This document shows positions 13,814 through 44,805 of a stretch of 64,000 bases of DNA, one piece after another. A program made the translations under genes and the position numbers. Under the pieces are notes generated by a model. The model was not told the origin of the DNA. It was given only the letters and a program-made list of their open reading frames with translations, and made no database searches. The DNA comes from an uncultured Muribaculaceae bacterium (GTDB lineage Bacteria; Bacillota_I; Bacilli_A; RF39; UBA660): contig CAZTRB010000005.1 of the NCBI GenBank assembly GCA_964616485.1, positions 11,592 through 75,591 of the forward strand, in the 5' to 3' direction. Every line of letters starts with the position of its first letter. Position 1 is the first letter of the stretch.

Positions 13814-13847
13814 AGCAAGAAAAAAGATATCTTTTTCAAGATATCTT
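13814..13847 (-). terminator. intrinsic terminator after the giant pilin-like gene
   Basis: Two copies of the self-complementary decamer aagatatctt (13824-13833, 13838-13847) form a 10-bp stem with loop tttc; T-run on minus strand (plus agcaagaaaa); stem includes stop codon. Confidence 0.55.
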
Positions 13848-16800
13848 ATCCCCAATTTTCACAACCACAAGCTGCTGTTCTACAAGAATTATTTCCTCCT
13901 ACACAAGTACTATAAGTGTATAGACAATTATTCCATCCACATGCACTATGTTGACAATAATAGTATCCGGCACATCCACAGCAATCATTATAACAGGTTG
14001 CAGCTTCCTCACCAGAAACACAACATGTTGTCGAAGTTTTATACCATGTTTGGCCACCCGAACTAGGTTTGCTACTTGCACACTTAGTTCCGCACCCATA
14101 ACCTCCTGTGTTTTGGTAACATTCATAGATATTTCCTTTAGTTTTACAATATGTTCCGCAACAAGAGTAACTAGTACATCTTTTATTTCCAGTACATCCG
14201 CATCCGGCAGTATAACAAGAATTATATCCTCCAACACAAACGGACGGGTTACCTGTTAAACAAGAATTCCATCCACAATTAGCATGTTGACAACTCTTAT
14301 TGGTAACACAACTCGATGTTATAGAACAAGTTCCTGTATTACCCGCTCCATCTGTAACCGTGTATGTCTTTGTACCTTTAACATTTGAATCATTATATGT
14401 AGCTGGAGATACTCCACTTGCATTATCAGAAGTTGTAACTTTTACGGTTATTCCATTAGCTCCATTCGCTGTTTTAACAGCAGTACAAGTAGGATTAACT
14501 GTATCTCTTTTTATCGTAAATACATTAGATGCAGCAGATGCATTACCTGCATTGTCAATTGATCTTACATAGAAATTCCAATTCCCATCCCAGTTTATCG
14601 TCCATGGATTTGACATTGCTGTCCAATTTGCAGCATCATGACTATACTGATAACTAGCAATTCCAGAACCAGTTCCGTCCGAAGATGATGCAGTTATTAC
14701 AACATTAGATTTTGTCCAAGTGCCTGAAGTATAAGAACCTAGATTGATCGTTGGTTTTGAAGGTTTTGTTGCATCTCTCTTTATTGTTACGACATTTGAA
14801 TTATCACTTATGTTACCAGATTTATCTATAGCCCTTACATAAACGTTCGTAGATATATCTGAACTAATTGTCCATGGATTCGACATCGTCGTCCATCCCG
14901 ACGTCCCATTAGTACTATATTCATATCTATCTAAGTTAGTATCCGATGAACTCGCTGTTATGACAATATTTTGATTTGACCATGTATTAGATGTATATGT
15001 AGTACCATCTGCTTTTTTCAAGGTTAAAGTTGGTTTCGACGGTTTCGTCGCATCTCTTTTAACATTAAAGACGTTTGACACATCACTTATATTACCAGCA
15101 CCATCAGTAGACCTTACATAGTAATTACTTTCGACATCTGTACTAATTGTCCATGGATTTGCCATATTTGTCCATCCTGAAGTTCCATTAACACTATATT
15201 CATATTTACTTATTCCTGAAATATTATCAGTTGAACTTGCCGTTACGACTACATTGCCAGAGGTCCATGTCCCTGAAGTATAAGAACCTAAATTGATCGT
15301 CGGTTTCGATGGTTTAGTAGCATCCCTTTTGATAACTACGGCATTAGATACATCACTAACATTTCCTGAGGAATCGATTGCTCTTACATAGATGTTTGTC
15401 GAAGTATCCCAGTTAATCGTCCATGGATTTGTCATAGCCATCCATCCCGATGTTCCGGTCGTACTATATTGATATCCAGCTAAGTTATCATCAGTTGAAC
15501 TTGCTGTAATGATTATATTTTGATTTGACCATGTATTAGATGTATAAGTAGAATTGTCTGCTTTCTTCATTGTCAATGTTGGTTTTGATGGTTTCGTCGC
15601 ATCTCTTCTAACAATAAATGGATTTGAATTATCACTTACGTTACCAGCACCATCAGTCGATCTGACATAGTAAGTTTTATCGGTATCGAAGTTTATCGTC
15701 CATGGATTTGACATCGTCGTCCATCCTGAAGTTCCATTGTTACTATATTCGTATTTGCTTATTCCCGAAATATTATCAGTTGAACTTGCCGTTACGACGA
15801 CATTACCAGAAGTCCATGTACCAGAAGTATACGAACCTAGATTAATCGTCGGCTTCGATGGTTTAGTACCATCTATTTTTACCGTTTGGTTGTTCGGACA
15901 AGTAACACAGTTTCCTGCTCTATCACAAACCTCGCCCGGTCCAGCCGTCGTCGTATTTATATCACTAGTATAAGGTTTAGTAATTGTCGTATTTACACAA
16001 CCACTACCACTATCACTACAAGTACCAATTATATTTACAGTCGTCTTACTCCATGCAGAACTTCCACCACTACTTACACAAGTTGGTTTCGTCGTATCGA
16101 TCGTATCGACGACTACCGCTTTATTAGTAACATGTCCAGCTTGGTCCTTAACCCACACATAATATGTACCATTATCAGAAGCTATATTTGGAACACCAAT
16201 TCCAAAACTAGTTCTTGCCGATATAGCGGTAAATGTCGGTTGTGTCGTCGAACTCTTATTTATACCGTAACCGATTATTCCTGAATTAGTATCTGTTCCG
16301 GTAAATACTATCGTTCCGTTAAGTCCGTCTTGACCAGTATCGATTATCGTCGAGTACGCTACATCCCAACTTACTGAAGTACCAGAACCCGTCAAGTAAA
16401 CGTGTCCGAAAGTCGAGAACGTTCCCGAACTACCCGCTTTTTGAATATAGATATATTCTGCCCAATCTCCAGTTCCAGCTTGTGGAGTGATCCAGTAGAC
16501 GCTTGAACCTGTACCGGTAGAATTAGAAGCTCTTTGAATAGTATACCCAACTGGTATCTTTGCAATTATTCTATGAGCATATACAGCATTAGCTCTCGAA
16601 GTTACAGTTTGAACATAACCTCCTAATCCAGGAGAACTGACACCATTTGTCGTTATTCTCATAACGTATGAACCATATGGGTTAGATTGAGCTACTCTAG
16701 CGTGAGTAACAGTACCATTTCCACTATTATTATATACGCTAAAGTTATTTGTCCCAGAAGCAAACGTCGGATCTTTGAATAACGGAGTCCCTGATATTGC

Positions 16801-18897
16801 TTCTGATATAACCGGAGCATTTTTATCTATTCTTACGATTTGGTCAGCCTGGCAAGTAGTACAGTTTCCTGCATTATCACAAACTTGTCCAGGTGATTCA
16901 TTAGTCGAATTTATATTAGAAGTATATGTTTTCGTTACCGTCGAATTCACACAACCACTATCAGCGTCATTACACGTTCCAGTAATCGTGACATTCGTCG
17001 TTTTCCATGTAGCGCTTCCACCACTATTTATACATGTTGGTGGTTCGTTATCGGCAGTTATCGTTTGGTGATACCATCCGCCACTATTTGGCGATTGAGT
17101 TATGACGTTACCAGCATTATCAACTAGTCTCGTATAAACGGTATATACTCCTCCAGGTAAACTAACAACGTGTTTATTTTGTCCAGTAATAGATGTAATG
17201 CCACCTACAGCAACACCGTTTCTTTCCATCTTGACTTGGAACTCTTTAATACCACTCAAATTATCAGCAACCGTAATTGTCAACGTTTGATTAGCACTAT
17301 ATACTCCCGTTAATAAGCTATAACTTGCAGTAGGAGCCGTCTTGTCGATTCTAGAAATCGTTACTGATGAAGGATCAGATGATAAACCGACAACGTTTCT
17401 CGTACGAACTTGAGCATTCGTTACATTTGACGAATAAATATTATAATTTGTCGATTGCCAAGAAGCGCCATCATTAAACGAATACTCAGTCGTTCTAACT
17501 AATCCAGCTCTTGGAATCAAGTTAACTTTTACATTGTTCTTAGTCCAGATACCTGGAGAAGCAGCGACTAAATCAATTCTAGAAACATTGTAAGATACAC
17601 CACTTAGTGCTCCTAAAACTAATCTAAAGTTAGAGTATTGTCCAACCGAAGGTAAAATAAACTCTATGTCTCTAGTACCTTGAATCATTAATGCTGATAC
17701 TGAGAGTTCATTCCCATTTTGATCTTTAAAGTAGACTCTACCCGTCGTCGTCGTTGGAATATTAGTATTTAAAGTCACAGTTAATTTCTTAATACCATTA
17801 AATGTCGGATACGAAGCAGTACCAAACGTTATAACTGGGTTTGTCGTAGTCGTCGTTAGTATTGTACCCGCTAAATTTAACCCCGAAAGAGTATATTCAT
17901 ATTGGTTAGGGAACAATTGATATGCATACTCAACATCAAATTCTGGTTTTGGAACACCCACTCTTACGTCGATTGAACAAATCCCCTCATTACCCGCTTC
18001 GTCTTTAACATAACCTACGACTGTCGTAAGTCCCATATCTAATTTAAGACTATCTTTTTTATTATAATCAATATTCTTTATACTAGTACCAAGTCCATAA
18101 GTTAAAAGTCCACTATCAGCATCATCTTTAGTATCGAACTTAACATAAACGTCTCCCGAATACCACCCTAACGCTTCTAAGTTTCCGCCATCTCTAATAA
18201 GTGTACAAGTTGGAGGAGTCTTATCGACATATACTTTTACCGGACAACTAGTTTGATTTCCACTCTTATCAACTATATTAATAAAACTCTCAGTAGTAGT
18301 CGTACCAAATGTCTTAGAGAATCTAGCTAAACGACAACCACTAGTTTGGTCACTACAACCAACACTAATTGTTCTATTTTCCTTAGTCCATGTAGTAGAT
18401 TCACCTATGACACTACCACATACCGGATTATCATTATCAGATTCATACTTAGAACAAGCCGAACCTTCAGTAGAATAATTTTCACAATACAAACACGCTC
18501 TATATTCGTAGTCACCACTAACTTTGCTTACCTCAACATAACTAAGTAAACTATTACAAAATCCATCTGTTTCCGGATCTTTTAATTCATCAGAGTAACC
18601 TTTTTCAATAACATCACTCAAATAGACAATAGATCTATCTCCATCGCCTGGTAAATTACAAGTGTAATCATTATTAGCAATACAATCAACAACCATGTTA
18701 TTCGTAGCTGTTTGCATATTCTTTTCATAAGCTAAATAAGTATTATCCTTACTACTTCCAATATAATTAGAAATAGCCGGAACTGTAATGATTGCCAATA
18801 TAGCAATTATCACGATAACGGCGATTACTTCTATTAAAGTAAACCCTTTCTTTTTCTTGGCTTTTTCCAAAATTTTACTAACAGTTTTCTTTCGCAT
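13846..18897 (-). CDS. giant (1683 aa) modular type IV pilin-like / pseudopilin-like surface protein: class III prepilin signal, Cys-containing modules, 5 tandem Ig-like repeats, Cys-rich C-terminal module
   Basis: MRKKTVSKILEKAKKKKG then FTLIEVIAVIVIIAILAIITVPA (prepilin peptidase site G/F, Glu at +5, hydrophobic alpha1 helix); AAGGAG RBS 8 nt upstream of ATG 18895-18897; promoter TTGACT-17-TAAAAT at 18932-18960 lies inside the ORF-track N-terminal extension, so start at 18897 preferred. Confidence 0.8.
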   Translation of the reverse strand: MRKKTVSKILEKAKKKKGFTLIEVIAVIVIIAILAIITVPAISNYIGSSKDNTYLAYEKNMQTATNNMVVDCIANNDYTCNLPGDGDRSIVYLSDVIEKGYSDELKDPETDGFCNSLLSYVEVSKVSGDYEYRACLYCENYSTEGSACSKYESDNDNPVCGSVIGESTTWTKENRTISVGCSDQTSGCRLARFSKTFGTTTTESFINIVDKSGNQTSCPVKVYVDKTPPTCTLIRDGGNLEALGWYSGDVYVKFDTKDDADSGLLTYGLGTSIKNIDYNKKDSLKLDMGLTTVVGYVKDEAGNEGICSIDVRVGVPKPEFDVEYAYQLFPNQYEYTLSGLNLAGTILTTTTTNPVITFGTASYPTFNGIKKLTVTLNTNIPTTTTGRVYFKDQNGNELSVSALMIQGTRDIEFILPSVGQYSNFRLVLGALSGVSYNVSRIDLVAASPGIWTKNNVKVNLIPRAGLVRTTEYSFNDGASWQSTNYNIYSSNVTNAQVRTRNVVGLSSDPSSVTISRIDKTAPTASYSLLTGVYSANQTLTITVADNLSGIKEFQVKMERNGVAVGGITSITGQNKHVVSLPGGVYTVYTRLVDNAGNVITQSPNSGGWYHQTITADNEPPTCINSGGSATWKTTNVTITGTCNDADSGCVNSTVTKTYTSNINSTNESPGQVCDNAGNCTTCQADQIVRIDKNAPVISEAISGTPLFKDPTFASGTNNFSVYNNSGNGTVTHARVAQSNPYGSYVMRITTNGVSSPGLGGYVQTVTSRANAVYAHRIIAKIPVGYTIQRASNSTGTGSSVYWITPQAGTGDWAEYIYIQKAGSSGTFSTFGHVYLTGSGTSVSWDVAYSTIIDTGQDGLNGTIVFTGTDTNSGIIGYGINKSSTTQPTFTAISARTSFGIGVPNIASDNGTYYVWVKDQAGHVTNKAVVVDTIDTTKPTCVSSGGSSAWSKTTVNIIGTCSDSGSGCVNTTITKPYTSDINTTTAGPGEVCDRAGNCVTCPNNQTVKIDGTKPSKPTINLGSYTSGTWTSGNVVVTASSTDNISGISKYEYSNNGTSGWTTMSNPWTINFDTDKTYYVRSTDGAGNVSDNSNPFIVRRDATKPSKPTLTMKKADNSTYTSNTWSNQNIIITASSTDDNLAGYQYSTTGTSGWMAMTNPWTINWDTSTNIYVRAIDSSGNVSDVSNAVVIKRDATKPSKPTINLGSYTSGTWTSGNVVVTASSTDNISGISKYEYSVNGTSGWTNMANPWTISTDVESNYYVRSTDGAGNISDVSNVFNVKRDATKPSKPTLTLKKADGTTYTSNTWSNQNIVITASSSDTNLDRYEYSTNGTSGWTTMSNPWTISSDISTNVYVRAIDKSGNISDNSNVVTIKRDATKPSKPTINLGSYTSGTWTKSNVVITASSSDGTGSGIASYQYSHDAANWTAMSNPWTINWDGNWNFYVRSIDNAGNASAASNVFTIKRDTVNPTCTAVKTANGANGITVKVTTSDNASGVSPATYNDSNVKGTKTYTVTDGAGNTGTCSITSSCVTNKSCQHANCGWNSCLTGNPSVCVGGYNSCYTAGCGCTGNKRCTSYSCCGTYCKTKGNIYECYQNTGGYGCGTKCASSKPSSGGQTWYKTSTTCCVSGEEAATCYNDCCGCAGYYYCQHSACGWNNCLYTYSTCVGGNNSCRTAACGCENWG
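13849..14328 (-). other. Cys-rich C-terminal module (~160 aa, >30 Cys) with internal duplication
   Basis: CQHANCGWNSCLTGNPSVCVGGYNSCYTAGCGC ... CQHSACGWNNCLYTYSTCVGGNNSCRTAACGC; CC and CGC clusters. Confidence 0.7.
14506..15873 (-). repeat. five in-frame tandem coding repeats (~273 bp, 90-92 aa each) alternating two subtypes
   Basis: Protein units D[AG]TKPSKPT...TASS[ST]D...GTSGW...NPWTI...YVR[AS][IT]D.[AS]GN[VI]SD..N....[IV][KR]R repeated 5 times; DNA-level recurrence of gtccatggatttgacat near 14594, 14876, 15420, 15705. Confidence 0.85.
15862..16089 (-). repeat. 6-Cys module copy 2 (PTCVSSGGSSAWSKTTVNIIGTCSDSGSGCVNTTITKPYTSDINTTTAGPGEVCDRAGNCVTC)
   Basis: Same Cys spacing as copy 1; sits directly before the tandem Ig-like repeats. 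Confidence 0.7.
16813..17040 (-). repeat. 6-Cys module copy 1 (PTCINSGGSATWKTTNVTITGTCNDADSGCVNSTVTKTYTSNINSTNESPGQVCDNAGNCTTC)
   Basis: ~75-aa module repeated again at 15862-16089 with recognisable DNA similarity. Confidence 0.7.
18826..18897 (-). other. class III (prepilin-type) signal peptide and N-terminal pilin helix
   Basis: Basic 18-aa leader ending in Gly followed by FTLIE and 20 hydrophobic residues. Confidence 0.8.
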
Positions 18898-18931
18898 AAT
18901 AAAGCTCCTTGTATTATCTTTTATATATAAC

Positions 18932-18960
18932 ATTTTAATATCTTTATACATAATAGTCAA
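18932..18960 (-). promoter_or_regulatory. candidate promoter of giant pilin-like gene (TTGACT-17-TAAAAT)
   Basis: Minus-strand ttgact (plus agtcaa 18955-18960), 17-nt spacer, taaaat (plus atttta 18932-18937); about 30 nt upstream of RBS/ATG. Confidence 0.4.
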
Positions 18961-19105: not shown

Positions 19106-21121
19106 ATGAAGAGATTTTTATTCGTGATTCTTTTGATATTGCTTCTTTTTAATAGTGGAACAGCACATGCAGAAATTATTAAGACTGGTCGGGCTATAGC
19201 CGATGTTGGGCTTAGAATTAGAGCTACTCCCTCTACTAGCGGAACACAATTAGGAACGATACCCTATGGAACGATAGTTAGAATCATCGGTGAAGCGAAT
19301 GGTTCGGGATGTAACGATCCTTGGTTTCAAGTAATTTACTCTACTGGTAATAGTAATATAAACGGTTATTCTTGTTCTACTTATATAACGGAAATTACGG
19401 AGTATGATACTGAAGAGAATACGCCTACAACACCACCAGTAAATAGCGAGGACTTCGAAGCCTACTTAACTTCACAAGGATTCCCAGAAAGCTACAAAGT
19501 CAAACTAAGAATTTTACACGAACAACATCCTAATTGGATATTTGTCGGTATAAAAGTAAGAGAGTCTTGGCAAACGTCTTTAAATCTTCAAGGCGAAGAT
19601 GGAAGAAGTACATTAAATGTTAATGCGGCAAGAAAGGCTTTGGGGCAAGAGGGATATTTATCGACTGCAGCGGGACACTATAACTATGAGACTGACACTT
19701 TTATTCCTAAAGATGGTACTTATTGGTTTCAAGCTAACTCAGATGCTATTGGATATTACCTTGACCCAAGAAACTTCATGGACGAGAAAAATGTTTTCAT
19801 GTTCGAAAGTCTTTTACAAAACGATGCTATTCATACTAAATCAGTAGTCGACGGGATCTTGTCGAGTGACTTCATGAAACAATATTCTAATCATTTCATG
19901 AAAGGTGCAAGAGACTACAACGTTTCTGCTACGCACTTAGCATCACTATCTAGACAAGAAGTAGGAATTACTAACGGTAACATTGTTACTAACGGAAAAG
20001 CCGGAGTATTATCAGACGGAGTTAACTATAACGGTTACTATAACTTTTTTAATATCGGAGCATCATCATCGGGAGATCCGAAGTTAAAATCGTTACAAAG
20101 CGCTAAAGCTCGCGGCTGGAATTCACCTGAGAAATCAATCGTTGGTGGAGCGGCTTTTATATCTAGTGGTTATATTAATGCCGGACAATACACGGCTTAT
20201 CTTCAAAAGTTTAACGTCGATCCTAATGCTACTAAAGGAATATGGCATCAGTATATGACTAACATAGCGGCATTATCTTCGCCGGCAATTACGACATATA
20301 ACTCATATAATAATCTCGGTTTCATAAACCATTCATTTATATTCTCGATTCCAATATTTACTAATATGCCAGAAAGCACTTCGTTACCTCCCTTAGGTAA
20401 CCCAAATAACTGGCTAAAAGAAATAAAGATAAATGGTATCGCTTTATCTAGTTTCTACGGTGGTACCACTAATTACACCATCGATATTCCTTACGAGGAA
20501 GAGATTACAGTAGAGGCTAAAAAAGTAAATAGTAACGCTACTGTATCAGGAACTGGAACAAAAGCCTTAACGGAAGACAAAACCACTTTAACGATTAAAG
20601 TCACTGCTCAAAACGGAAGCGTTAAAAACTATACGGTAACAGTTAATCGTGGGATAAAAGACGATCCTAACTTAGAGATAGATCTTCTATTAAAAGATGT
20701 CTTAACTGATAGCAAATACAAATACGATAGTAAAAATCTTTGGGGAATAACTCTAGGAACTAGCGTTAAGAGTCTTACTAGTAAAATAAAAGGAAAATAT
20801 AAAACAGTAAGTGTAAATATAAAAAATAAAGACGGCAATACTAAAACAGACGGTGTCATAGTTACAGGAGATAAAGTAACGATAACGACTAAACAAGAAT
20901 CTACTACTATCGAAGTAATAATCTTTGGTGATACTAATGGAGACGGATACATCTCGGCAATCGACATCTTAAGCGCTCAAAAACATATCCTTGGATATAC
21001 TACTCTTTTAGGAACTAGTTTCAAAGCGGCAGACATAAATAAAGACGGTGTCATATCAGCTTATGACTTACTACAATTTCAAAAACACGTCTTAGGTTAT
21101 ACTAATATAAGCCAATCATAG
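19106..21121 (+). CDS. secreted peptidoglycan hydrolase: signal peptide, SH3b, GH73 N-acetylglucosaminidase domain, cadherin-like beta-sandwich domain, C-terminal type-I dockerin
   Basis: Signal peptide MKRFLFVILLILLLFNSGTAHA; SH3b GRAIADVGLRIRATPSTSGTQLGTIPYGTIVRII; glucosaminidase-like core aa ~230-400; cadherin-like NNWLKEIKINGIALS...TIKVTAQNGSVKNYTVTVNR; dockerin FGDTNGDGYISAIDILSAQKHILGYT...AADINKDGVISAYDLLQFQKHVLGYT. Confidence 0.8.
   Translation: MKRFLFVILLILLLFNSGTAHAEIIKTGRAIADVGLRIRATPSTSGTQLGTIPYGTIVRIIGEANGSGCNDPWFQVIYSTGNSNINGYSCSTYITEITEYDTEENTPTTPPVNSEDFEAYLTSQGFPESYKVKLRILHEQHPNWIFVGIKVRESWQTSLNLQGEDGRSTLNVNAARKALGQEGYLSTAAGHYNYETDTFIPKDGTYWFQANSDAIGYYLDPRNFMDEKNVFMFESLLQNDAIHTKSVVDGILSSDFMKQYSNHFMKGARDYNVSATHLASLSRQEVGITNGNIVTNGKAGVLSDGVNYNGYYNFFNIGASSSGDPKLKSLQSAKARGWNSPEKSIVGGAAFISSGYINAGQYTAYLQKFNVDPNATKGIWHQYMTNIAALSSPAITTYNSYNNLGFINHSFIFSIPIFTNMPESTSLPPLGNPNNWLKEIKINGIALSSFYGGTTNYTIDIPYEEEITVEAKKVNSNATVSGTGTKALTEDKTTLTIKVTAQNGSVKNYTVTVNRGIKDDPNLEIDLLLKDVLTDSKYKYDSKNLWGITLGTSVKSLTSKIKGKYKTVSVNIKNKDGNTKTDGVIVTGDKVTITTKQESTTIEVIIFGDTNGDGYISAIDILSAQKHILGYTTLLGTSFKAADINKDGVISAYDLLQFQKHVLGYTNISQS
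20924..21103 (+). other. type-I dockerin module (two Ca-binding F-hand repeats)
   Basis: Duplicated D.N.DG.I.A.D...(K)H.LG segments matching dockerin consensus GDVNGDGKVNSTD...LKRYILK. Confidence 0.8.
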
Positions 21122-21130
21122 GAGGACTTT

Positions 21131-22546
21131 ATGAAAAAAATCTTTAAACCATTTACAATGGTTTTCCTTTTTACAGTGATGTTTTTGTTTAATAATAACG
21201 TCTTGGCAGCTAACTTAAATGTCTCGATAACCTCGAGTACTAGTAGAGCGGTAGTTGGTAACAATATTACTTATACGGTTAGAGTGTCTTCTAATGCTAA
21301 ATTTGGTAATATTCATTATAGATTAGAATATGACACTTCTAAGTTAACTCATGTAAGTGGAACACTAAATAATTTTGATTTAAATGTTATCGATAAATAT
21401 TCTGCTACTTACACTTTTACTTTTAGAGCAAAAGCAAGTGGTAATGCTAGAGTAACGTTCGTAATCAACGAAGCCTTAGAATTAAATAACAATTCTTTTA
21501 ATTATAATACTAGAACCAATAAAGATATAACGATCATAACTCAACAACAATTAGAAGCTAGCTATAGTAAAAACAACTACCTATCATCTTTAAAAATAGA
21601 TAATTTTGAAATGACACCGGCTTTTAATAAAGATACTTTAGAATACTCGATAGAATTAGAAAACGATGTTAAATCAATAAATATTAGCGGTACTAAAGCA
21701 GATTCAACAGCATCAGTCGAAGGTTTGGGTGCACATGAATTAATAGAAGGACCAAATAAAATAAATATAAAAGTTACTGCCCAAAACGGTGCCTCTAGAA
21801 CATATACGATAAATGCAACGGTAAAAGAATTAAATCCCATTATCGTAACTGTCGACGGCAAAGAATATAATGTCGTTAGAAAAAAAGACCTAATAAAAAA
21901 ACCTAATAGCAAATACGAAGAGACGATTATACAAATAAATGAAGAAGATGTCCCAGCTTTCATAAACGAGACGACTAAAGTAACATTAATCGGGCTTAGA
22001 GATGAAGAGGACAACATTTCTTTATTTAGTGTTAAAAATGATACGTATATTCCTTACCAAGAATTCGCTTTTAGTAGTATAATATTTACGGAAGAAAATT
22101 TAGACGATCTTCCTAAAGGTTATACTAAAACTAAATTAAAACTCGAAGAAGTAGAAATAGACGCTTATCAAGATAACTCTAACTTAAATTTCTACCTAAT
22201 AAAAGGAGTGAACATTGAAACGGGAATAACTTCCCTATATCAATATGATAGTAAAGAAAACACTCTTCAAATATATAATGATTCATTAGCTAAACAAAAT
22301 AAGGAATTAACTAATAAGAATAATATTTATCTTTATACTATAATTGGTCTAATAGCACTCATAGCTATATCTTCCGGAACGATATTAGTAAAGACTTTAA
22401 AAAATGAAAAACCTAAAATAAAAAAAGAAGAGAAGACCGACAAAAAAGTCAAAGAAAAAGTAGAGGAACCGAAAGAACCTATCATAGAAGAAGAGAGTCT
22501 AACAAAACAAATAAAGAAAATGAAAAAAAATAAAAAACAATCTTAA
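21131..22546 (+). CDS. type-I membrane protein with signal peptide, cohesin-like N-terminal module, cadherin-like domain, C-terminal TM helix and Lys/Glu-rich cytoplasmic tail
   Basis: Signal MKKIFKPFTMVFLFTVMFLFNNNVLA; NLNVSITSSTSRAVVGNNITYTVRVSSNAKFGNIHYRLEYDTSKLTHVSG resembles cohesin (..YDp.vLe.vsv..G); cadherin-like YLSSLKIDNFEMTPAFNKDTLEYS...INIKVTAQNGASRTYTINATV; TM IYLYTIIGLIALIAISSGTILV; 10-nt gap to upstream dockerin gene. Confidence 0.55.
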   Translation: MKKIFKPFTMVFLFTVMFLFNNNVLAANLNVSITSSTSRAVVGNNITYTVRVSSNAKFGNIHYRLEYDTSKLTHVSGTLNNFDLNVIDKYSATYTFTFRAKASGNARVTFVINEALELNNNSFNYNTRTNKDITIITQQQLEASYSKNNYLSSLKIDNFEMTPAFNKDTLEYSIELENDVKSINISGTKADSTASVEGLGAHELIEGPNKINIKVTAQNGASRTYTINATVKELNPIIVTVDGKEYNVVRKKDLIKKPNSKYEETIIQINEEDVPAFINETTKVTLIGLRDEEDNISLFSVKNDTYIPYQEFAFSSIIFTEENLDDLPKGYTKTKLKLEEVEIDAYQDNSNLNFYLIKGVNIETGITSLYQYDSKENTLQIYNDSLAKQNKELTNKNNIYLYTIIGLIALIAISSGTILVKTLKNEKPKIKKEEKTDKKVKEKVEEPKEPIIEEESLTKQIKKMKKNKKQS

Positions 22547-37648: not shown

Positions 37649-37921
37649 CTAGTTAACTGCTTCTTTTAATGCTGTACCAGCTTTAAAAGTAACGGCTTTT
37701 CTCGCAGCAATTTTAACTTTTGCTCCTGTTTGTGGGTTACGTCCCTCTCTTGCTTTTCTATGTGAAACTCCGAAAGTTCCAAATCCAGCAACTGGTACCT
37801 TGTTCCCCTTTGCTAATGCATTAGAAATAGTATTAAATACTGCGTCTAAAGCACGTGTTGCATCAGCTTTTGTAAGTCCCGTTTCTTTTGCAACTGCTTC
37901 TACTAAATCTGCCTTTTTCAT
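37649..37921 (-). CDS. hup: DNA-binding protein HU
   Basis: MKKADLVEAVAKETGLTKADATRALDAVF...GFGTFGVSHRKAREGRNPQTGAKVKIAA; GC-richer codons typical of a highly expressed gene. Confidence 0.97.
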   Translation of the reverse strand: MKKADLVEAVAKETGLTKADATRALDAVFNTISNALAKGNKVPVAGFGTFGVSHRKAREGRNPQTGAKVKIAARKAVTFKAGTALKEAVN

Positions 37922-38018: not shown

Positions 38019-39059
38019 TTACATAATTAACGCTTTTTCATTCAAAACATAGCGATAAGCCTTATTTTCATGGATAATAATAAACGTACTTTCTCTTTTC
38101 CTCTTACTCTCAAAAAACAAGATAGGTATCCTTAATTCATCTTCGATATCGATTAGATCTTTAACGTTAGTTATATCCATTACATTAAATTTACTTAAGT
38201 CTGGTTTTTTAGCCACTTCAGCGATAACATTGGCATAAGTAGTTAAGATCCTATCTCTTTCTTTAGTGTAAGGGTCAGCGTTTTTAAGGTGTAGTACTCT
38301 CTTTAAATAATAGAAGAATAAGACAAATGACACCATTACTAAGAATATTCCAATAGTAAGACCGTACTGATTAACGATGTTATCTTTACTAAAAACATTT
38401 TTATTCTCATTGAAAGATCCCGTTTTATCGACACTTACTACCGTATCCAAAAGAGGAATTTTAGCTGTCATAGTGTGAAGATCAGCGACTTTCTTAGCCG
38501 TTTCTTTAGTCGTAATAAGATTGTTTATTTCAAAGACAACTTTTATATAAGCCTCTGTTAAGATAGAACTTTCTTTTCTAAACTCCAAAGCTTCTTCTTG
38601 ATATTCTTTATAATCGATAGTCGTTTTATAATCAAAGAACACGACTCCTGTCTCTTGTTTTATGACTTTATTTTTAGGAAACAAAACGTCTTCTCTCTTC
38701 CATAATTCTTCCGTTTGAAGGCCGTCTTTATAAGTGTTAACTAAAAACAAAGATATAGAATATTCCGCTTCAGAATCAATTAGATTAATAGACGTAAGGT
38801 CATAAGTAAATTTTAAATCGATATAGTCGATATATTTAGCTAGAATCTTATTCTTATTAATATATTCATCTTTATATAAAAAGTTATCTTTTAGTCTAAA
38901 ATTATACTCGATATCACCGAAAGATTTATAATCGACAACGATATTATTTTTGTTATTTTCTATACTCGTACTATCATAAGTTATAATTGATCCGGCAAAA
39001 AAGAGTAATACCCCTAGTAATAATAATACTATACTTTCCTTTTCTTTAGTTCTTTTCAT
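38019..39059 (-). CDS. bitopic membrane protein (N-terminal TM, ~220-aa extracytoplasmic domain, second TM, ~100-aa cytoplasmic tail), last gene of der-hup island
   Basis: TM1 IVLLLLGVLLFFAGSII, TM2 GLTIGIFLVMVSFVLFFYYL; 14-nt gap to SipW-like gene; no assignable motif. Confidence 0.5.
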   Translation of the reverse strand: MKRTKEKESIVLLLLGVLLFFAGSIITYDSTSIENNKNNIVVDYKSFGDIEYNFRLKDNFLYKDEYINKNKILAKYIDYIDLKFTYDLTSINLIDSEAEYSISLFLVNTYKDGLQTEELWKREDVLFPKNKVIKQETGVVFFDYKTTIDYKEYQEEALEFRKESSILTEAYIKVVFEINNLITTKETAKKVADLHTMTAKIPLLDTVVSVDKTGSFNENKNVFSKDNIVNQYGLTIGIFLVMVSFVLFFYYLKRVLHLKNADPYTKERDRILTTYANVIAEVAKKPDLSKFNVMDITNVKDLIDIEDELRIPILFFESKRKRESTFIIIHENKAYRYVLNEKALIM

Positions 39060-39073
39060 CTTGACCTCCTATT

Positions 39074-40213
39074 TTAATTATTTAAAAGTTCATTAAACCA
39101 TACTGTAGGATATCCAAAATATGGTAGAGAAACATTATATTTTGCAACTATGTCTTCCGGATAAACTCTCCAGTTATCTTCTGACGAATTATTATCTCCT
39201 TTTGTTATGAGATAATCTATATCACCATTAGATAATCTACTTATATAATTAATCCTGTGAACGACATAGGTATTATCGTATCTATAATAGATTATATCAT
39301 ATTGAACTAAATTATTAATATCTTTATCACTTAATTTTTCTAAAATTAATAAATCTCCTCTTTTAAAAGTATCTTTCATACTATCGGATAAAACGGCCAT
39401 CGGATAATAATTAAATACTCTTAAGATAAACATTATTAATACCGATACGACGATGGCAAGAATAGTTATACCACCATTCTTTTCATCGATAAACCTTCTC
39501 GTTCTAGAATCGCTATTATTAACCAAGGTACTTATATTAAAATAGACGAACATCGGTAGCAACAAACCGAATAGAGTCGTTACAATCCAGGGATGGCTAG
39601 GTAAAATAGGTAAGATGATTAGTAATAGTCTCGTCCATACCAAGTAGATTATAGTCGTCTTATACTTCATATTTCTTTGTAAATAAGTCATGACATAACT
39701 AGTTATAATAAGCGGAAGGACTAATGAAGAAAACATCTTAAAAAGATAACTAAACTCACTTACAGAGAAAATATATAAGACATTCATACTACTGAAAGCC
39801 AATAAAAATGAAATGATACTATTATTAATTAAAGTATCTTTGGAGTTGGTAATTAACTTATATCTTATATACTCGTTTACCGTTATCGTTCCAATAGTAG
39901 TAAAAACAACTTTTAAAAGAGTAATTAAAGACCTATTATATATCGATTTCTCATAACCAAAGAAAAGACCAGACATAAAATATATTAAAGAATATATTAT
40001 TAAGATTATTATTATGTTTTGAGTCTTATCGTAGTTATCTTTGCTCTTAGTATATTTAGTATCGAATAAAAAGAAGAAAGTAACTGCTATTATCGATAAA
40101 ATTATCATATTCATTATTCCTGCATACACAGAGAAGATAGAAGTAACTAGATAATTTTGAAATATTATATATAAAAACAGTATTATATATGTTAAATATA
40201 TTTTCTTCATCAT
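39074..40213 (-). CDS. SipW-type (ER/archaeal-type S26B) signal peptidase I fused to a Cys-free ~8-TM N-terminal domain
   Basis: C-terminal peptidase MAVLSDSMKDTFKRGDLLILEK (Ser box; SipW VVLSGSMEPEFNTGDLILV) and ITKGDNNSSEDNW (GDNN box); ~280 aa of TM helices with no Cys precede it; AGGAGG RBS before MMKK. Confidence 0.6.
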   Translation of the reverse strand: MMKKIYLTYIILFLYIIFQNYLVTSIFSVYAGIMNMIILSIIAVTFFFLFDTKYTKSKDNYDKTQNIIIILIIYSLIYFMSGLFFGYEKSIYNRSLITLLKVVFTTIGTITVNEYIRYKLITNSKDTLINNSIISFLLAFSSMNVLYIFSVSEFSYLFKMFSSLVLPLIITSYVMTYLQRNMKYKTTIIYLVWTRLLLIILPILPSHPWIVTTLFGLLLPMFVYFNISTLVNNSDSRTRRFIDEKNGGITILAIVVSVLIMFILRVFNYYPMAVLSDSMKDTFKRGDLLILEKLSDKDINNLVQYDIIYYRYDNTYVVHRINYISRLSNGDIDYLITKGDNNSSEDNWRVYPEDIVAKYNVSLPYFGYPTVWFNELLNN

Positions 40214-40310
40214 GGTCCTCCTATTATAAATATTATATACTACAACAAAGAAAAAAAACAACTTTTACAGTCTTTTGTACTGTTTAATTGTTTTTTTGTA
40301 AACTTATCTT

Positions 40311-40826
40311 TTAACGAACTACATAGTCAAGTGTCAGCCTCAAGTCTTTTGTTAAGTCTTCAGCGGTAACTTCTTCAGTCATATCTGGATTATAATAAGC
40401 TATAACTTCAAATAATTTGCTTTGTCCGACTTGTAATACTTCACCGGCTTCTATTCCGTTTATTGTATAAATAATAAATCCTTCTCCATAGTCTTTAGGA
40501 TTTAATTCAATGGCATTTAATTTAGCATCTAGGTTTCCTTGATTTCTAACATTAACAACATATTTAACGGTATCACCAGGATCGACAAAAGTAGCGCTAA
40601 ATATAGCGGTCTTAGAATCTAAAACGGTCGATTCTAAACTTTTTCCACTTCCCTCAGTCTCTGTGCTATTAATTGCCGTTATCGCGACGTCAAAGTCAGG
40701 GTTAACGATCGTAGCACTTCCTTTTATTTCTAACTGCGTAGATAAAAGAGCATACCCTACTGACACAAAAACAAGTGCAACTAGTAAAGCTCCAATCATC
40801 GTATTTTTCTTATCTTTATTGCTCAT
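40311..40826 (-). CDS. secreted/anchored protein, possible TasA/camelysin-like SipW substrate (alternatively an effector immunity protein)
   Basis: Signal/anchor MSNKDKKNTMIGALLVALVFVSVGYALLSTQLEIKGSA; VDPGDTVKYVVNVRNQGNLDAKL resembles TasA LKPGDKLTKDFQFENNGSLAIK; position directly upstream of SipW-like peptidase. Confidence 0.4.
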   Translation of the reverse strand: MSNKDKKNTMIGALLVALVFVSVGYALLSTQLEIKGSATIVNPDFDVAITAINSTETEGSGKSLESTVLDSKTAIFSATFVDPGDTVKYVVNVRNQGNLDAKLNAIELNPKDYGEGFIIYTINGIEAGEVLQVGQSKLFEVIAYYNPDMTEEVTAEDLTKDLRLTLDYVVR

Positions 40827-40880: not shown

Positions 40881-41948
40881 CTATGAATCTACTACTTTTA
40901 ATTTAAGACGAATCATACTCTTAACCTGATTAAATTGTTCAGTAGAATGAAACATTGTCTGTGAAATTGTCGTTGAACCTACTTTATCACCAGTTACGAC
41001 CCATTCGTAATAGTTTGTTCTTAAGAATGTACTAGGGTCTTTTCTATTTACATAAGGTTCAGAAACAGCTGTCGCATAGTTTTGCCAACCTTTAGCACCA
41101 TCAGCCGTCGTCCTTTGAAGCTGTTTTATTTTACCAGCACTAACTGGAAGTTTTACGATTATTCTAATAGTCTCTCCCTTTTTTACGACTATTTCATCAT
41201 CTCTTTTATATTCTTTTCCGTTATACCAAAGAGTAGGAGTTTGGGCTACTTTACCTATTTTAGGTGAGATATAATAATCATCATTATCAATATCTCCGAC
41301 AAAAGCCCTAGCTTCTTCATCGAGACTAAGATTAGTACTAGTTATTTGACTATTGACTATCTTTTTAACTTCTTCTTCCTTTATTTTAATCTCTTCTATT
41401 TTAGTAGTAGTAACTCCTTTAATAGAGGCTATCTCTTTATCAATACTCTCTTTTAAAATCGTCAAAGTTCTAAAGTCACTATCGACATTCGTCGTTAATT
41501 CATCTTTAGTAGATTGATAAGTCTTATAAGCACTAGTTAAAGTAGTCGTCTCTTCATTATTACTATCTAACTCGTATTTAGGTGAAGGTTCTCTTAGTTT
41601 ATCAAGAGTCTCTTTATTTTTCTCATACTGTAAATCTAAATCTTTAAAAGTCTCTAACATCGATACTAGATTGTTTACTATGCGTTCTGAAACTGGAATC
41701 AATGCTTGTTCGACATTTTTATTAAGATTTTTAATAGCTTCTATTATCTGTGGTAAAAACTCGGACTTTAAATACTCTTGTCCCGCTTCTTTCCAATTCT
41801 CACCGCTCATCGAATCTAATAGATTTGTGTCTATATCAACTATTTTAGTAACATCTTCAAGCACCCTTTTCGCTTTGTTAACAAGTTCTTTTTCACTTTT
41901 GAGTTTTTCATAATAATTATCGTAAGGATTAATATAAAAAATTGCCAT
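40881..41948 (-). CDS. LXG-like N-terminal domain protein with unassigned beta-rich C-terminal domain (T7SSb effector-like)
   Basis: No signal peptide; IVDIDTNLLDSMSGENWKEAGQEYLKSEF parallels LXG segment IVDLDNAFQGKGADAIKAFF at the same position (~aa 35-60); long predicted helical N-half; preceded by two WXG100-like genes. Confidence 0.5.
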   Translation of the reverse strand: MAIFYINPYDNYYEKLKSEKELVNKAKRVLEDVTKIVDIDTNLLDSMSGENWKEAGQEYLKSEFLPQIIEAIKNLNKNVEQALIPVSERIVNNLVSMLETFKDLDLQYEKNKETLDKLREPSPKYELDSNNEETTTLTSAYKTYQSTKDELTTNVDSDFRTLTILKESIDKEIASIKGVTTTKIEEIKIKEEEVKKIVNSQITSTNLSLDEEARAFVGDIDNDDYYISPKIGKVAQTPTLWYNGKEYKRDDEIVVKKGETIRIIVKLPVSAGKIKQLQRTTADGAKGWQNYATAVSEPYVNRKDPSTFLRTNYYEWVVTGDKVGSTTISQTMFHSTEQFNQVKSMIRLKLKVVDS

Positions 41949-41964
41949 TTAATCACATCCTTTA

Positions 41965-42288
41965 TTAATTTATATCTAATTTGCTAGTATTGTCTTCTAA
42001 AAATTGAATTCGATTTCTTTCATCGGTATTATAAGCTTCGATTGCTTCTTCTAAAAACAAAATCAAACTCTCTAATTCTTTTATTTCTAAAGGAAAGTTT
42101 TCACTTATCTTTAAATACTTGTCATACATAATTTGTTGAGTCTTACCAACCCAAACATCAGTTTCTCCATTTATTTGCTTTAGATTATGATCTAATTCAT
42201 CGAATTTACTTTCAAGACTAAACTTTTTTTGTTTTAAAAGAGCTACTACTTTTTCAAGTTCTTTAGTATTAATATCTAAATTCATCAT
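41965..42288 (-). CDS. WXG100-family small helical protein (EsxA/Lap-like)
   Basis: 107 aa; central DVWVGKTQQIMYDKYLKISENFPLEIKELESLILFLEEAI aligns with EsxA [32 protein letters not shown]. Confidence 0.6.
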   Translation of the reverse strand: MMNLDINTKELEKVVALLKQKKFSLESKFDELDHNLKQINGETDVWVGKTQQIMYDKYLKISENFPLEIKELESLILFLEEAIEAYNTDERNRIQFLEDNTSKLDIN

Positions 42289-42587
42289 AGCTTATCACCG
42301 TCTTTTCTCATTTCAGCAACAAACTCATTATTTCTCTTAGTGTATACCCCCATACAATAGTCTATCTTTTCATAGATTCTTTTCAACCTATGATTCTCAT
42401 ATTTACTTTTTGAAATAAATCCACGATACTTATCACAAAAAGCATCACTATCGACGCCTTTCCAATTTTGTTCGATTATCGGAAGTAAGTCTTCTATTTC
42501 TTTAATTACTTTTTCTATCTCTTCATACTTAGTCTCAATAGATAACGAAACACTATCCATTTCTTGAAATTTAACTTTTAGTTTCAT
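42285..42587 (-). CDS. WXG100-like small protein (second helper)
   Basis: 100 aa; IEQNWKGVDSDAFCDKYRGF contains W-x-G followed by AF as in WXG100 proteins; 4-nt overlap with next gene. Confidence 0.45.
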   Translation of the reverse strand: MKLKVKFQEMDSVSLSIETKYEEIEKVIKEIEDLLPIIEQNWKGVDSDAFCDKYRGFISKSKYENHRLKRIYEKIDYCMGVYTKRNNEFVAEMRKDGDKL

Positions 42588-42588
42588 A

Positions 42589-43482
42589 TTAAACTCCTTG
42601 CTTCAATACATCGATATATATTTCGTTAGTCAATAGGGTTTCAACGGTAATATCTAACTTTTTAGCGATGTTATTGATATAGTTTTTATATATACTCATC
42701 TCTTTATTAGTTAAGCCATCCGGTATTTCAGGAGCATAATAAAGAGAGTGAAAAGTTTTAAACAAAAGAGTCTTATTTTTATCCTCGATTAATAGTTCGG
42801 AAAAAGTAATATTACTTGATTCTGCTACTTTTTCTAGATGTTCTTTAGTTATTAAAAAAGTCAGGCTTTGTTCAAAAATATTAAAATCTTTGTTTTTTGC
42901 TAACAATTCTAAAAGTTGTTTTTGAATGACAAAATTATCTTCTGTAGAAAAAACTAAATTTGGTGCGAATCTTTTTAAGTAGAAGATTAAGGCCTTAGTG
43001 TTTTGGCCTCCAAATAAAAGACGATTTAAATTAAATGGGTCTTTTTCGTTAACGTTTTGAACTAGCAAACTTTGTCCAAACGAATCGAAATCAGCAAGGT
43101 CCGTAATCTGGCTATTAGGAAGCATGCTTGGTCCACCTACAGTCTCTCCAATTACACCACTAAATCCACCACCTCCAGTATAGCCACTATAACCACTACC
43201 ATTATTAGTATCATCTTCGACAATCTTACCAAGATTCTCTTCACTAGTTATCATGTCTTCACTATGTCCTCTAAGTCTTCTAATTAATTGTGTTTTATTT
43301 GTAGCAAGACTATCTACGTCTTTTTTAATATCTTCGGCAACAGTCGATAGTTCTAATTCTTTAAATACAGCAAAATCAGTAGCCACCGAAGTAGCGACTG
43401 CTTCCAAAAGGGCCGAAGTCTCTGATAACTTACTAATTACTTCTTCTAATTCTGCAGAGTTATAAATTATTTCATTTGTCAT
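42589..43482 (-). CDS. hypothetical bipartite protein: helical N-domain, Gly-rich linker, ~170-aa C-domain
   Basis: No signal/TM; GSGYSGYTGGGGFSGVIGETVGGP linker; begins 18 nt after der stop with AGGTG RBS. Confidence 0.5.
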   Translation of the reverse strand: MTNEIIYNSAELEEVISKLSETSALLEAVATSVATDFAVFKELELSTVAEDIKKDVDSLATNKTQLIRRLRGHSEDMITSEENLGKIVEDDTNNGSGYSGYTGGGGFSGVIGETVGGPSMLPNSQITDLADFDSFGQSLLVQNVNEKDPFNLNRLLFGGQNTKALIFYLKRFAPNLVFSTEDNFVIQKQLLELLAKNKDFNIFEQSLTFLITKEHLEKVAESSNITFSELLIEDKNKTLLFKTFHSLYYAPEIPDGLTNKEMSIYKNYINNIAKKLDITVETLLTNEIYIDVLKQGV

Positions 43483-43500
43483 ATAATCACCTACTTATTA

Positions 43501-44805
43501 TTAATCACTTCTATTTTTAAACTGTAATACTATCGGAGTACCACTTAATTCAAAATTTTCTCTTAATTTATTTTCTAAATATCTCTCGTATGAAAAGTGA
43601 ACGAGATTTTTATTATTAACATGAAATGTATATTTAGGAGGTTTCTTTCCCGTTTGATTGACAAAATATATCTTAAGTCTCTTACCTTTATAAGATGGTG
43701 GTGGATTTAATGTGTATGCTTCAATCATAACTTCAGATAAAAGACTACTCGCTATTTCTCTACTTATATTTTCTTTTACTTTAAGTATCTCAGGCATAAT
43801 AGTATGAATTCTCTTTTTAGTTAAAGCCGATGTAAATACGATCGGTACATAACTTAAAAATTGAAACTCTGATCTTACTTTCTTAGTATATTCTCTTATA
43901 TCCATATCTTTAACAGTATCCCATTTGTTAACGACGATTATTAATCCTTTACCACTTTCCAAGACATATCCGGCAATATGTTTATCATGCTCGATAATTC
44001 CTTCTTCCGCATTAATTACTAAGAGACAAATATCGCTACGATCAATCGCCTTCATACTTCTAAGAGCACTATACTTCTCAATATTTTCAAATATTCGTCC
44101 CTTTTTTCTTAATCCAGCTGTGTCGATAGCTACAAACTCTTCATCGTTATATCTGAACACCGTATCAACGGCATCTCTAGTCGTTCCAGGAACATCACTA
44201 ACAATTAAACGGTCTTCATTTAAAAGAGCATTTATAATACTACTCTTACCGACATTGGGCCTTCCAACGACGGAAAACTTTAAACGATTATCTTCTATTG
44301 AATAATCTCTCTTCGGTAAATGCGATACTATTTCATCGAAAAGTTCGATGAAACCGATATTATGCTCTCCACTTACTTGAACATAACTATCGAATCCAAG
44401 CTCATAAAAATCATAGATATTATCGATACTCTTTTTACTATCTACCTTGTTAATAACGACTATTACTTCCTTGTTACTTTTTCTTAACATATCTCTTACT
44501 AAATAGTCGTTACTAGTCAAGCCCTCTTTACCATCGACGATAAATAACACGACATCGGCTTGTTCGATAGCAATTTCCGCTTGCATTTTTATTACGTCAT
44601 TAAATTTTATCTCTTCACTATCGATACCACCGGTATCAATAACATTGAACTTATAATCTCCGTAAGTAGTATCACTATATATCCTGTCTCTAGTAACTCC
44701 AGGAGTATCTTCGATAATAGATATTCTTGAACCGACCATACGATTGAAGATTGTGCTTTTTCCAACATTAGGCGTTCCGACTAATGCGATAATTGGAAGG
44801 TTCAT
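43501..44805 (-). CDS. der: ribosome biogenesis GTPase Der (EngA), tandem GTPase domains + KH-like domain
   Basis: Two G-domains: GTPNVGKST...DTPG and GRPNVGKSS...DTAG. Confidence 0.96.
   Translation of the reverse strand: MNLPIIALVGTPNVGKSTIFNRMVGSRISIIEDTPGVTRDRIYSDTTYGDYKFNVIDTGGIDSEEIKFNDVIKMQAEIAIEQADVVLFIVDGKEGLTSNDYLVRDMLRKSNKEVIVVINKVDSKKSIDNIYDFYELGFDSYVQVSGEHNIGFIELFDEIVSHLPKRDYSIEDNRLKFSVVGRPNVGKSSIINALLNEDRLIVSDVPGTTRDAVDTVFRYNDEEFVAIDTAGLRKKGRIFENIEKYSALRSMKAIDRSDICLLVINAEEGIIEHDKHIAGYVLESGKGLIIVVNKWDTVKDMDIREYTKKVRSEFQFLSYVPIVFTSALTKKRIHTIMPEILKVKENISREIASSLLSEVMIEAYTLNPPPSYKGKRLKIYFVNQTGKKPPKYTFHVNNKNLVHFSYERYLENKLRENFELSGTPIVLQFKNRSD

Follow-up and report, generated by a model that had tools for sequence, protein, structure and literature searches.

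A conserved four-gene unit

The genes described here lie on the minus strand of a 64-kb stretch of DNA from an uncultured bacterium (contig CAZTRB010000005.1, positions 11,592 to 75,591), referred to below as the window, and form a candidate cassette for a substrate of a type VII secretion system (T7SS). An earlier note on this DNA had described positions 40881-42587 as an LXG-like effector gene with two small WXG100-like helper genes. The listing of open reading frames (ORFs) indeed places three ORFs there, all on the minus strand, which we call p100, p107, and p355 after the length of their products in amino acids (Table 1). The strings that had been quoted for them are present as well: NWKGVDSDAF in p100, VWVGKTQQ in p107, and, spanning residues 45-64 in p355, DSMSGENWKEAGQEYLKSEF. 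The unit that is conserved across genomes comprises four genes rather than the three first proposed, as the upstream gene, p297 in the window, is always included.

The order of a p297-like gene, a gene of family WXG-A (family A, that of p100), a gene of family WXG-B (family B, that of p107), and a gene for a protein with the N-terminal domain of p355 (N-domain) was kept in 7 cassettes from 5 distinct genomic settings. The cassettes of L002 and L003 occupy the same locus as that of the window, L010 carries two in tandem beside infC, and those of L013 and L022 are found beside typA and a SpoU methylase gene, and beside pilC and pilD, respectively. Within the window, 18 bp separate der from p297, 1 bp separates p297 from p100, p100 and p107 overlap by 4 bp, and 16 bp lie between p107 and p355. 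In L022 (L022:2516-8372), the cassette directly follows the genes for PilC (T2SSF) and a prepilin peptidase (A24).

The unit opens with a gene for a protein with an N-terminal helical hairpin of about 90 residues, a linker rich in glycine and serine, and a helical carboxyl-terminal domain of about 170 residues, an arrangement that its homologues have in common. Orthologues could be aligned from the matching position in L002, L003, L010 (twice), and L013, while the first gene of L022, encoding 256 residues, was assigned by eye only, on the basis of a GLFSDG hairpin motif like that of p297. Neither a signal peptide nor a transmembrane (TM) segment was predicted for p297. Pfam and NCBIfam scans of p297 and its homologues (6 proteins) assigned no family, the only match being DUF5344 at E=0.07, and hhalign found no similarity between p297 and WXG-A. 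We propose that p297 acts as a third partner or as a co-substrate. At L012:1-801, a relative of p297 is fused at its carboxyl terminus to Peptidase_C39_2 and lies directly upstream of a gene for a protein with both domains of p355, so that the first gene of the cassette can also carry cargo.

The small proteins p100 and p107

The proteins p100 and p107 are predicted from their sequences to be helix-turn-helix hairpins of about 100 residues. Pfam scans covered 12 copies from 6 cassettes (that of the window and 5 from public contigs, with L022 left out), and motifs were counted in all 7 cassettes including L022, for a total of 14 copies. WXG100 (PF06013, gathering score 27.3 bits) ranked first or second for all 12 scanned copies, 4 of which exceeded the gathering score (27.5, 28.5, 28.0, and 35.5 bits). 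The orthologues of p100 scored 22.3-28.5 bits, with 3 of them over the gathering score, and those of p107 reached up to 35.5 bits and additionally showed weak matches to LXG and YwqH-like profiles. For the window copies themselves, all Pfam and NCBIfam matches stayed below the curated cut-offs: p100 matched WXG100 at E=4.9e-5 (24.0 bits) and TIGR03930 at E=7e-6, and p107 matched a YwqH-like profile at E=1e-3, ESAT6_2 of NCBIfam at E=1e-4, and WXG100 at E=0.02 (15.5 bits). The Pfam alignments extend over profile positions 2-62 (p100) and 2-81 (p107) of 86.

The W-x-G signatures noted earlier proved to be more than chance. WKG occupies residues 42-44 of p100 and WVG residues 46-48 of p107, and a WxG motif is found at the same central position in 7/7 members of family A (near position 42) and 6/7 members of family B (near position 46), or 13 of the 14 copies. 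The second helix is followed by YxxxD/E in 13/14 copies, across both families. Family A has an invariant tyrosine here (Y82, or Y78 in the shorter copy of L013), with aspartate at +4 in 6/7, and in family B the motif is present in 7/7 with either glutamate or aspartate (YNTDE at 86-90 in window p107). Five of the 7 members of family B end in a LD(V/I)N tail, which reads LDIN in p107. By hhalign, families A and B are related, aligning at E=4e-5 with their WxG motifs in register. Judged by these profiles and motifs, p100 and p107 are divergent WXG100 proteins. The motif known for the export of ESX substrates is YxxxD/E, and for Lap1-type partners it is FxxxD.

The N-terminal domain of p355

A structure of p355 was predicted with AlphaFold2 (AF2) from an alignment of 20 sequences, with a mean predicted local distance difference test (pLDDT) score of 85. 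The model agrees with the helical N-terminal half and the beta-rich carboxyl terminus anticipated for this protein. Its N-terminal half is built from helices at residues 22-47, 56-117 (62 residues), and 139-~183, the last preceded by a short β-hairpin; W52 sits in the first turn, and residues 184-214 form a disordered linker to the second domain. This modelled architecture of a helix, a tryptophan-containing turn, and very long helices resembles the LXG design. No signal peptide, TM segment, or other hydrophobic segment was predicted for p355.

A profile search against 1.84 billion cluster representatives returned 207 relatives of p355. When the profile was split, these fell into 3 architectures: proteins with both the N-domain and the carboxyl-terminal domain (C-domain); proteins with the N-domain followed by other carboxyl termini, in which the N-domain is nearly always N-terminal and TM segments are absent; and proteins with the C-domain at their extreme carboxyl-terminal end, behind a TM or signal segment or behind other helical heads. 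Nearly all of about 90 representatives carry the N-domain at the N-terminus of a protein without TM segments, the exceptions with an internal copy being P0022 (residues 288-476) and P0135. A search of word-indexed homologues with the N-domain profile returned only 5 proteins. Scanning of metagenome contigs yielded 1 locus and that of species-representative genomes 2 loci, neither of the latter from the window organism. In alignments of 32 and of 52 diverse homologues, W52 was the sole invariant column. The turn sequence is WxExG for most members; WKG, WSG, and WEG also occur. In place of the L-x-G motif that had been suggested, p355 has a turn with an invariant tryptophan, WKEAG, which is a true WxG in some homologues.

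The cargo attached to the N-domain varies. Peptidase_C39_2 was found in 19/52 family members and a match to the papain-like Peptidase_C70 in one, and another type of carboxyl terminus resembles NlpC/P60 by eye (DCIGFVRWAYYQG ... HIAMVVG) while having no Pfam match. A protein of 5353 residues, P0149, combines the N-domain (with a YWEGEA turn), a papain-like region, and a terminal ADP-ribosyltransferase exoenzyme domain (ADPrib_exo_Tox, PF03496; 25.7 bits, gathering score 23.4). Such placement at the N-terminus and fusion to varied cargo would be expected for a secretion-targeting head.

Pfam and NCBIfam scans of p355 and 52 N-domain homologues gave no meaningful family for the N-domain, and a sequence search of the PDB with the p355 profile gave only coiled-coil or chance matches. 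The layout of LXG proteins is nevertheless recognizable: an elongated helical head of about 200 residues is followed by variable carboxyl-terminal cargo, and the small WXG-like genes p100 and p107 lie directly upstream, in an order kept in all 7 cassettes. In this respect, the Lap-like arrangement proposed at the outset holds, with hairpins of the WXG100 family preceding a signal-less protein composed of a helical head and cargo. As judged from sequence, the N-domain forms a separate, uncurated family that is LXG-like in design without being a member of LXG.

A second subfamily of p355-like proteins (L008:7472-10801 and L009:5652-8792) shows a clear WEG motif, and WXG partner genes are absent from its upstream side. 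Its members come from one metagenome-assembled genome (MAG) of “Candidatus Coprovivens” and one unclassified MAG. The gene is preceded by genes for a VanY carboxypeptidase with 2 TM segments and a coiled coil, a lipoprotein-like protein of 236 residues, and a SleB-like cell-wall hydrolase.

The carboxyl-terminal domain of p355

The second domain was modeled as a beta-sandwich at residues 225-355 with pLDDT > 90. When compared with the PDB using Foldseek, it matched the S-layer protein SbsC, ZirS, Rib, chagasin-type ICP, and antibody-like structures, at TM-scores of 0.3-0.55 as normalised by target length; among viral models, the matches were Big_2 and Hoc-like immunoglobulin (Ig) domains. The 24 scanned copies matched no Pfam family, including the Pfam Ig families, and a PDB sequence search with a profile of the domain gave no more than coiled-coil or chance matches. 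The predicted fold is that of a generic Ig-like sandwich, and the model supports it with confidence. Neither Foldseek, Pfam, nor the PDB sequence search matched the domain to a toxin fold or family.

Among 60 diverse copies of the C-domain, R279, W316, Q330, and T331 are invariant, and K343, G258, S329, and P298 are nearly so, pointing to a defined functional site. A loose R...STT...EQ pattern noted earlier in this region survives in part, since R279 and S329-Q330-T331 recur in 60/60 or 57/60 domains, whereas the EQ is unconserved. A reading of the C-domain as an ADP-ribosyltransferase was considered and rejected: it comprises 130 residues with an Ig fold, has no ExE motif, and the “EQ” is not conserved.

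The same domain caps proteins that are anchored N-terminally by a Sec signal or TM segment and consist of Big_2 and Bact_surface_Ig-like repeats. In P0018 and P0058, it takes the place that VanY has in the L008/L009 gene, on the same scaffold of 2 TM segments and a coiled coil. As the C-domain thus ends Sec- or TM-anchored surface proteins, an extracellular role may be argued for p355 too, with extracellular binding as the simplest reading of the predicted domain. These results speak against a toxin-type effector, the role first envisaged for p355. Chagasin/ICP-like structures at Foldseek ranks 11, 28, and 47 for p355 provide a lead toward a possible protease inhibitor, sister proteins of p355 carrying papain-like peptidases.

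The adjacent signal peptidase module and the genomic setting

The minus-strand gene run continues beyond p355 with p171, a signal peptidase I (SPase I) gene, and a gene for a DUF5305 protein, following gaps of 54 bp, 49 bp, and 14 bp, respectively (Table 1). The p171 gene had been put forward as a candidate immunity gene. Its product has an N-terminal helix at residues 3-32 with one TM-like segment (10-28), followed by a predicted beta-sandwich (AF2, pLDDT 81.5), and a promoter-like TTGACA-17-TAAAAT at 40873-40845 lies within the 54-bp gap ahead of the gene. The SPase I is of the SipW/archaeal type (TIGR02228, 68.7 bits with a cut-off of 51.85; Peptidase_S26, 32.1 bits) and is polytopic, with about 8 predicted TM segments ahead of the S26 domain. 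The third protein (PF17231, 48.5 bits with a cut-off of 29; TM segments 9-27 and 234-252) is a putative accessory subunit of the SPase I. The SPase I ORF starts with TTG in the window; since the public gene call at the identical locus in L001 has 378 residues, translation probably begins about 17 codons further downstream.

Table 1. Positions of the cassette, the domains of p355, and the neighbouring genes in the window.
Feature	Position	Strand	Length or residues	Remark
der	43501-44805			upstream bound of the minus-strand gene run
p297	42589-43482	-	297 aa	
p100	42285-42587	-	100 aa	
p107	41965-42288	-	107 aa	
p355	40881-41948	-	355 aa	
p355 N-domain	41397-41948	-	residues 1-~184	
p355 C-domain	40881-41285	-	residues ~222-355	
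p171	40311-40826	-	171 aa	
Signal peptidase I	39074-40261	-	395 aa	
DUF5305 protein	38019-39059	-	346 aa	
HU gene	37649-37921			downstream bound of the minus-strand gene run

This module and the cassette occur independently of each other. The trio of p171, SPase I, and DUF5305 genes is found without the WXG cassette in L020/L021, between SpoVIF and SpoIVA, and a p171-like gene stands alone, without the trio, in L018/L019; conversely, the four-gene cassette is found without the p171 module at L010, L013, and L022. Because the trio occurs alone in syntenic relatives, the module seems to be the older resident, upstream of which the cassette was inserted. Downstream of p355-like genes at other loci, only unrelated or opposite-strand genes were found, with no conserved small gene at any locus read. 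The product of p171 is therefore a signal-peptide protein of an independent module, which belongs to SPase I and DUF5305 rather than to the cassette, and not an immunity protein.

A dedicated multi-TM SPase I has been reported next to genes of the TasA superfamily (AbpX; bioRxiv 10.64898/2026.01.04.697558), and the combination of SPase I with a DUF5305 accessory gene has been described for AbpX and Tafi loci (for AbpX, bioRxiv 10.64898/2026.01.04.697558). A Foldseek search of the PDB with p171 returned no TasA, AbpA, or AbpX, the best match being an archaeal adhesive AAP pilin at E=0.013, and a PDB sequence search with the p171 profile was negative. Aligned by hhalign with a TasA sequence, p171 shared a local PGD...N.G motif only (E=2e-3, at a low match probability of 13%). 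We provisionally assign p171 as a fibre subunit.

The window has a GC content of about 30%, and its remaining genes are housekeeping genes of the low-GC Bacillota type. Syntenic relatives share the order LtaS, thiI, ackA, der, SpoVIF, followed by SpoIVA, HU, and cca; SpoVIF and SpoIVA are both present at this place in the relatives and are not present at the window locus.

Interpretation as a probable type VII substrate cassette

We consider it probable, with some reserve, that 40881-43482 is a four-gene type VII substrate cassette with an Ig-like binding domain as its cargo, and that it probably encodes no antibacterial toxin and no immunity protein. A binder is favoured over a toxin because of the Ig-like fold and the lack of a conserved small gene downstream. 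In the mechanism that we propose, the N-domain of p355 would be bound along its long helices by p100, by p107, and probably also by the N-terminal p297 hairpin while in the cytoplasm, giving an elongated helical bundle in which the YxxxD/E motifs and the conserved carboxyl-terminal tail would make up a composite export signal. An ATPase of the EssC type, with its gene at another place in the genome, would recognize this signal. The exported cargo would be the Ig-like domain of p355, most likely a binder of, for example, a cell-envelope or glycan ligand, which it may contact through its invariant Arg/Trp/Gln-Thr/Lys site.

Several results weigh against this interpretation. The 64-kb window and extensions of about 10 kb on each side (about 84 kb in all) yielded no gene of the EssC, EsaA, EssB, or YukD type, nor were T7SS core genes found in the flanks of the other cassettes, which reach up to 10 kb and in several cases end 0.1-2.5 kb from the cassette. 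With no core gene in the regions examined, T7SS export of the cassette is something that we infer. Orphan substrate modules away from the core locus are common, so that the missing core is weak evidence. The profile searches of the p355 N-domain for LXG and WXG families all failed, and its first classification as an LXG domain has to be given up: Pfam LXG (PF04740) had no match to p355 at E<=1 and none among 52 family members at E<=1e-3, NCBIfam returned coiled-coil noise of the SMC/Rad50 type and one weak WXG100 match, hhalign detected no similarity to either of the two WXG partner families, and no LXG complex was among the top PDB matches listed by Foldseek for p355. The earlier note had named such failure, together with the lack of a T7SSb core anywhere in the genome, as refuting its reading; the first half of this applies, and the second concerns more of the genome than the roughly 84 kb covered. 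Window p100 has an asparagine at +4, and thus YxxxN rather than YxxxD. Finally, an enzymatic or inhibitory site would be just as compatible with the polar residues that are invariant in the C-domain.

Part of this evidence would fit a cassette that is independent of type VII secretion and forms an intracellular or envelope complex, for instance in cell-wall remodelling or sporulation, or that uses another export route in a lineage without EssC. The lack of T7SS core genes in every region examined and the failure of the N-domain and p297 families to match any T7SS profile point in this direction, as do the cell-wall theme of cargo and neighbours (C39/NlpC-like peptidases and, next to the second subfamily, genes for VanY and a SleB-like protein) and the position of the locus between SpoVIF and SpoIVA in relatives. 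However, the sporulation neighbours are explained by the conserved der-spoIVA-hbs synteny, and the window organism does not have them here; substrate modules far from a core are usual, and only some 84 kb of the genome are covered. To our knowledge, moreover, WXG100 proteins bearing YxxxD/E are known solely as components or substrates of T7SSs. We regard independence from type VII secretion as unlikely, if worth bearing in mind.

Alternatively, all 7 genes may form one operon, in which the cassette is an accessory of the p171/SPase I/DUF5305 fibre system and p355 is an Ig-like tip, anchor, or cross-linker of a filament like those of TasA or AbpX. The 7 genes share one strand with gaps of at most 54 bp, the block is whole in L002 (and broken after the p171-like gene in L003), TasA-superfamily loci have been reported to encode, next to SPase I and DUF5305, subunits of a tip or minor kind, and the p355 C-domain and p171 are both predicted beta-sandwiches. 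Against this, the p171 module occurs alone in fully syntenic relatives, the cassette occurs alone beside infC, typA/spoU, or pilC/pilD, and a promoter-like site separates the two. Furthermore, hhalign detected no similarity between the C-domain and p171, p355 does not have a signal peptide, which SPase I would require, and a TasA-like fold was not recovered for p171. A common fibre system is therefore very unlikely in our view.

An antibacterial polymorphic toxin with p171 as its immunity protein is highly improbable: although at least one giant homologue carries a true toxin domain (ADPrib_exo_Tox) on the N-domain, both domains of p355 are shuffled among proteins in the manner of polymorphic toxins, and the C-domain has a strictly invariant polar set (R279, W316, Q330, T331, and K343), this 130-residue Ig-like domain matches structural or adhesive Ig domains only and also terminates housekeeping-looking surface proteins, and p171, with its signal/anchor helix, is grouped with SPase I and DUF5305, exists without p355, and is not matched by any conserved gene downstream of p355-like genes elsewhere.

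LXG antibacterial toxins make up the bulk of known T7SSb substrates, and most cargo of the N-domain looks like envelope-acting peptidases or a binding domain, not like toxins. About 90 cluster representatives make up the family, whose targeting domain goes undetected by every curated LXG and WXG profile and which appears to have 3 dedicated partners. Confirmation of export would widen the recognisable repertoire of T7SS substrates in a poorly studied, likely gut-associated group of Bacilli, in which the T7SS may then serve surface decoration or adhesion, and would provide a profile for finding such substrates. More speculatively, and with a low probability in our estimation, this lineage may export non-toxic surface cargo such as an Ig-like binder and cell-wall-type peptidases by means of a WXG100-partnered, LXG-like domain, in which case type VII-style secretion would serve housekeeping or adhesion; more radically, it may do so without EssC by an undescribed route. 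A false toxin-immunity annotation is also removed, and an adjacent putative fibre module is identified in this bacterial group.

Other features of the window

Elsewhere in the window, positions 13846-18960 (minus strand) encode a protein of 1704 residues with an N-terminus like that of a type IV prepilin (KKGFTLIEVIAVIVIIAILAII), many repeats of about 95 residues, and a cysteine-rich carboxyl-terminal region. Two adjacent genes at 19106-22546 (plus strand) encode secreted proteins of 671 and 471 residues. At its end, the first carries a duplicated calcium-binding repeat that is dockerin-like (DTNGDGYISAIDIL ... DINKDGVISAYDLL), and the second has a carboxyl-terminal TM anchor.

Comparison with known systems

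The p171 module, and not the cassette, is comparable to the TasA/SipW, AbpX, and Tafi loci, with which it shares a small signal-peptide protein predicted to be a beta-sandwich, a multi-TM SPase I, and DUF5305, in addition to the local PGD...N.G motif that p171 has in common with TasA. It differs in that the fold search with p171 returned none of TasA, AbpA, and AbpX, and in that a single long helix is predicted for the N-terminus of p171.

The C-domain of p355 has the predicted fold of bacterial Ig-like surface domains (Big_2, Rib, SbsC, and the phage protein Hoc) and follows Big_2 or Bact_surface_Ig-like repeats in other proteins. Unlike these domains, it has an R/W/SQT/K signature of its own and belongs to no Pfam Ig family, and in p355 it is attached to a helical domain of the secretion type instead of a Sec signal.

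Like the WXG100 proteins EsxA/EsxB and ESAT-6/CFP-10, p100 and p107 are an adjacent, related pair of about 100 residues each, with a helix-turn-helix, a central WxG, and YxxxD/E in their families. However, neither of the window copies reaches the Pfam gathering threshold, and they are encoded beside a large partner protein, as Laps are, whereas EsxA belongs to a core T7SS locus. Across T7SS subtypes, candidate substrates have been reported to have small WXG100-related genes next to them (PMC11217815), and published T7SS substrates are flanked by 1 to 3 such partners (PMC11217815, PMC10653861, PMC10801868).

The closest parallel is formed by the LXG/Lap modules, such as Tel/Lap of Streptococcus intermedius, EsaD of Staphylococcus aureus, and ywqH-ywqI-ywqJ of Bacillus subtilis. 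According to PMC11217815 and PMC10653861, LXG toxins and their Lap partners consist of small helical genes, a long helical N-domain, and separate carboxyl-terminal cargo. Likewise, 2 to 3 hairpin genes in the cassette lie directly upstream of a signal-less protein with a helical N-domain of about 180-200 residues ahead of exchangeable cargo, the p107 family has weak YwqH-like and LXG matches, and the partners have motifs of the YxxxD/E type. A precedent for 3 helical partners per LXG-type substrate is provided by EsaD with EsxB, EsxC, and EsxD (PMC10653861). In contrast to LXG proteins, the N-domain of the cassette is missed by PF04740 and has an invariant tryptophan (WxxxG or WxG) instead of LxG. 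In addition, the cassette has no T7SS core nearby in the regions examined, is not followed by an immunity gene, begins with an obligatory gene of about 300 codons whose product has a C-domain of its own, and carries cargo that is mostly a C39-like peptidase or Ig-like, rather than a nuclease, NADase, or lipid II-targeting toxin. The cassette is thus a variation on the LXG/Lap substrate design.

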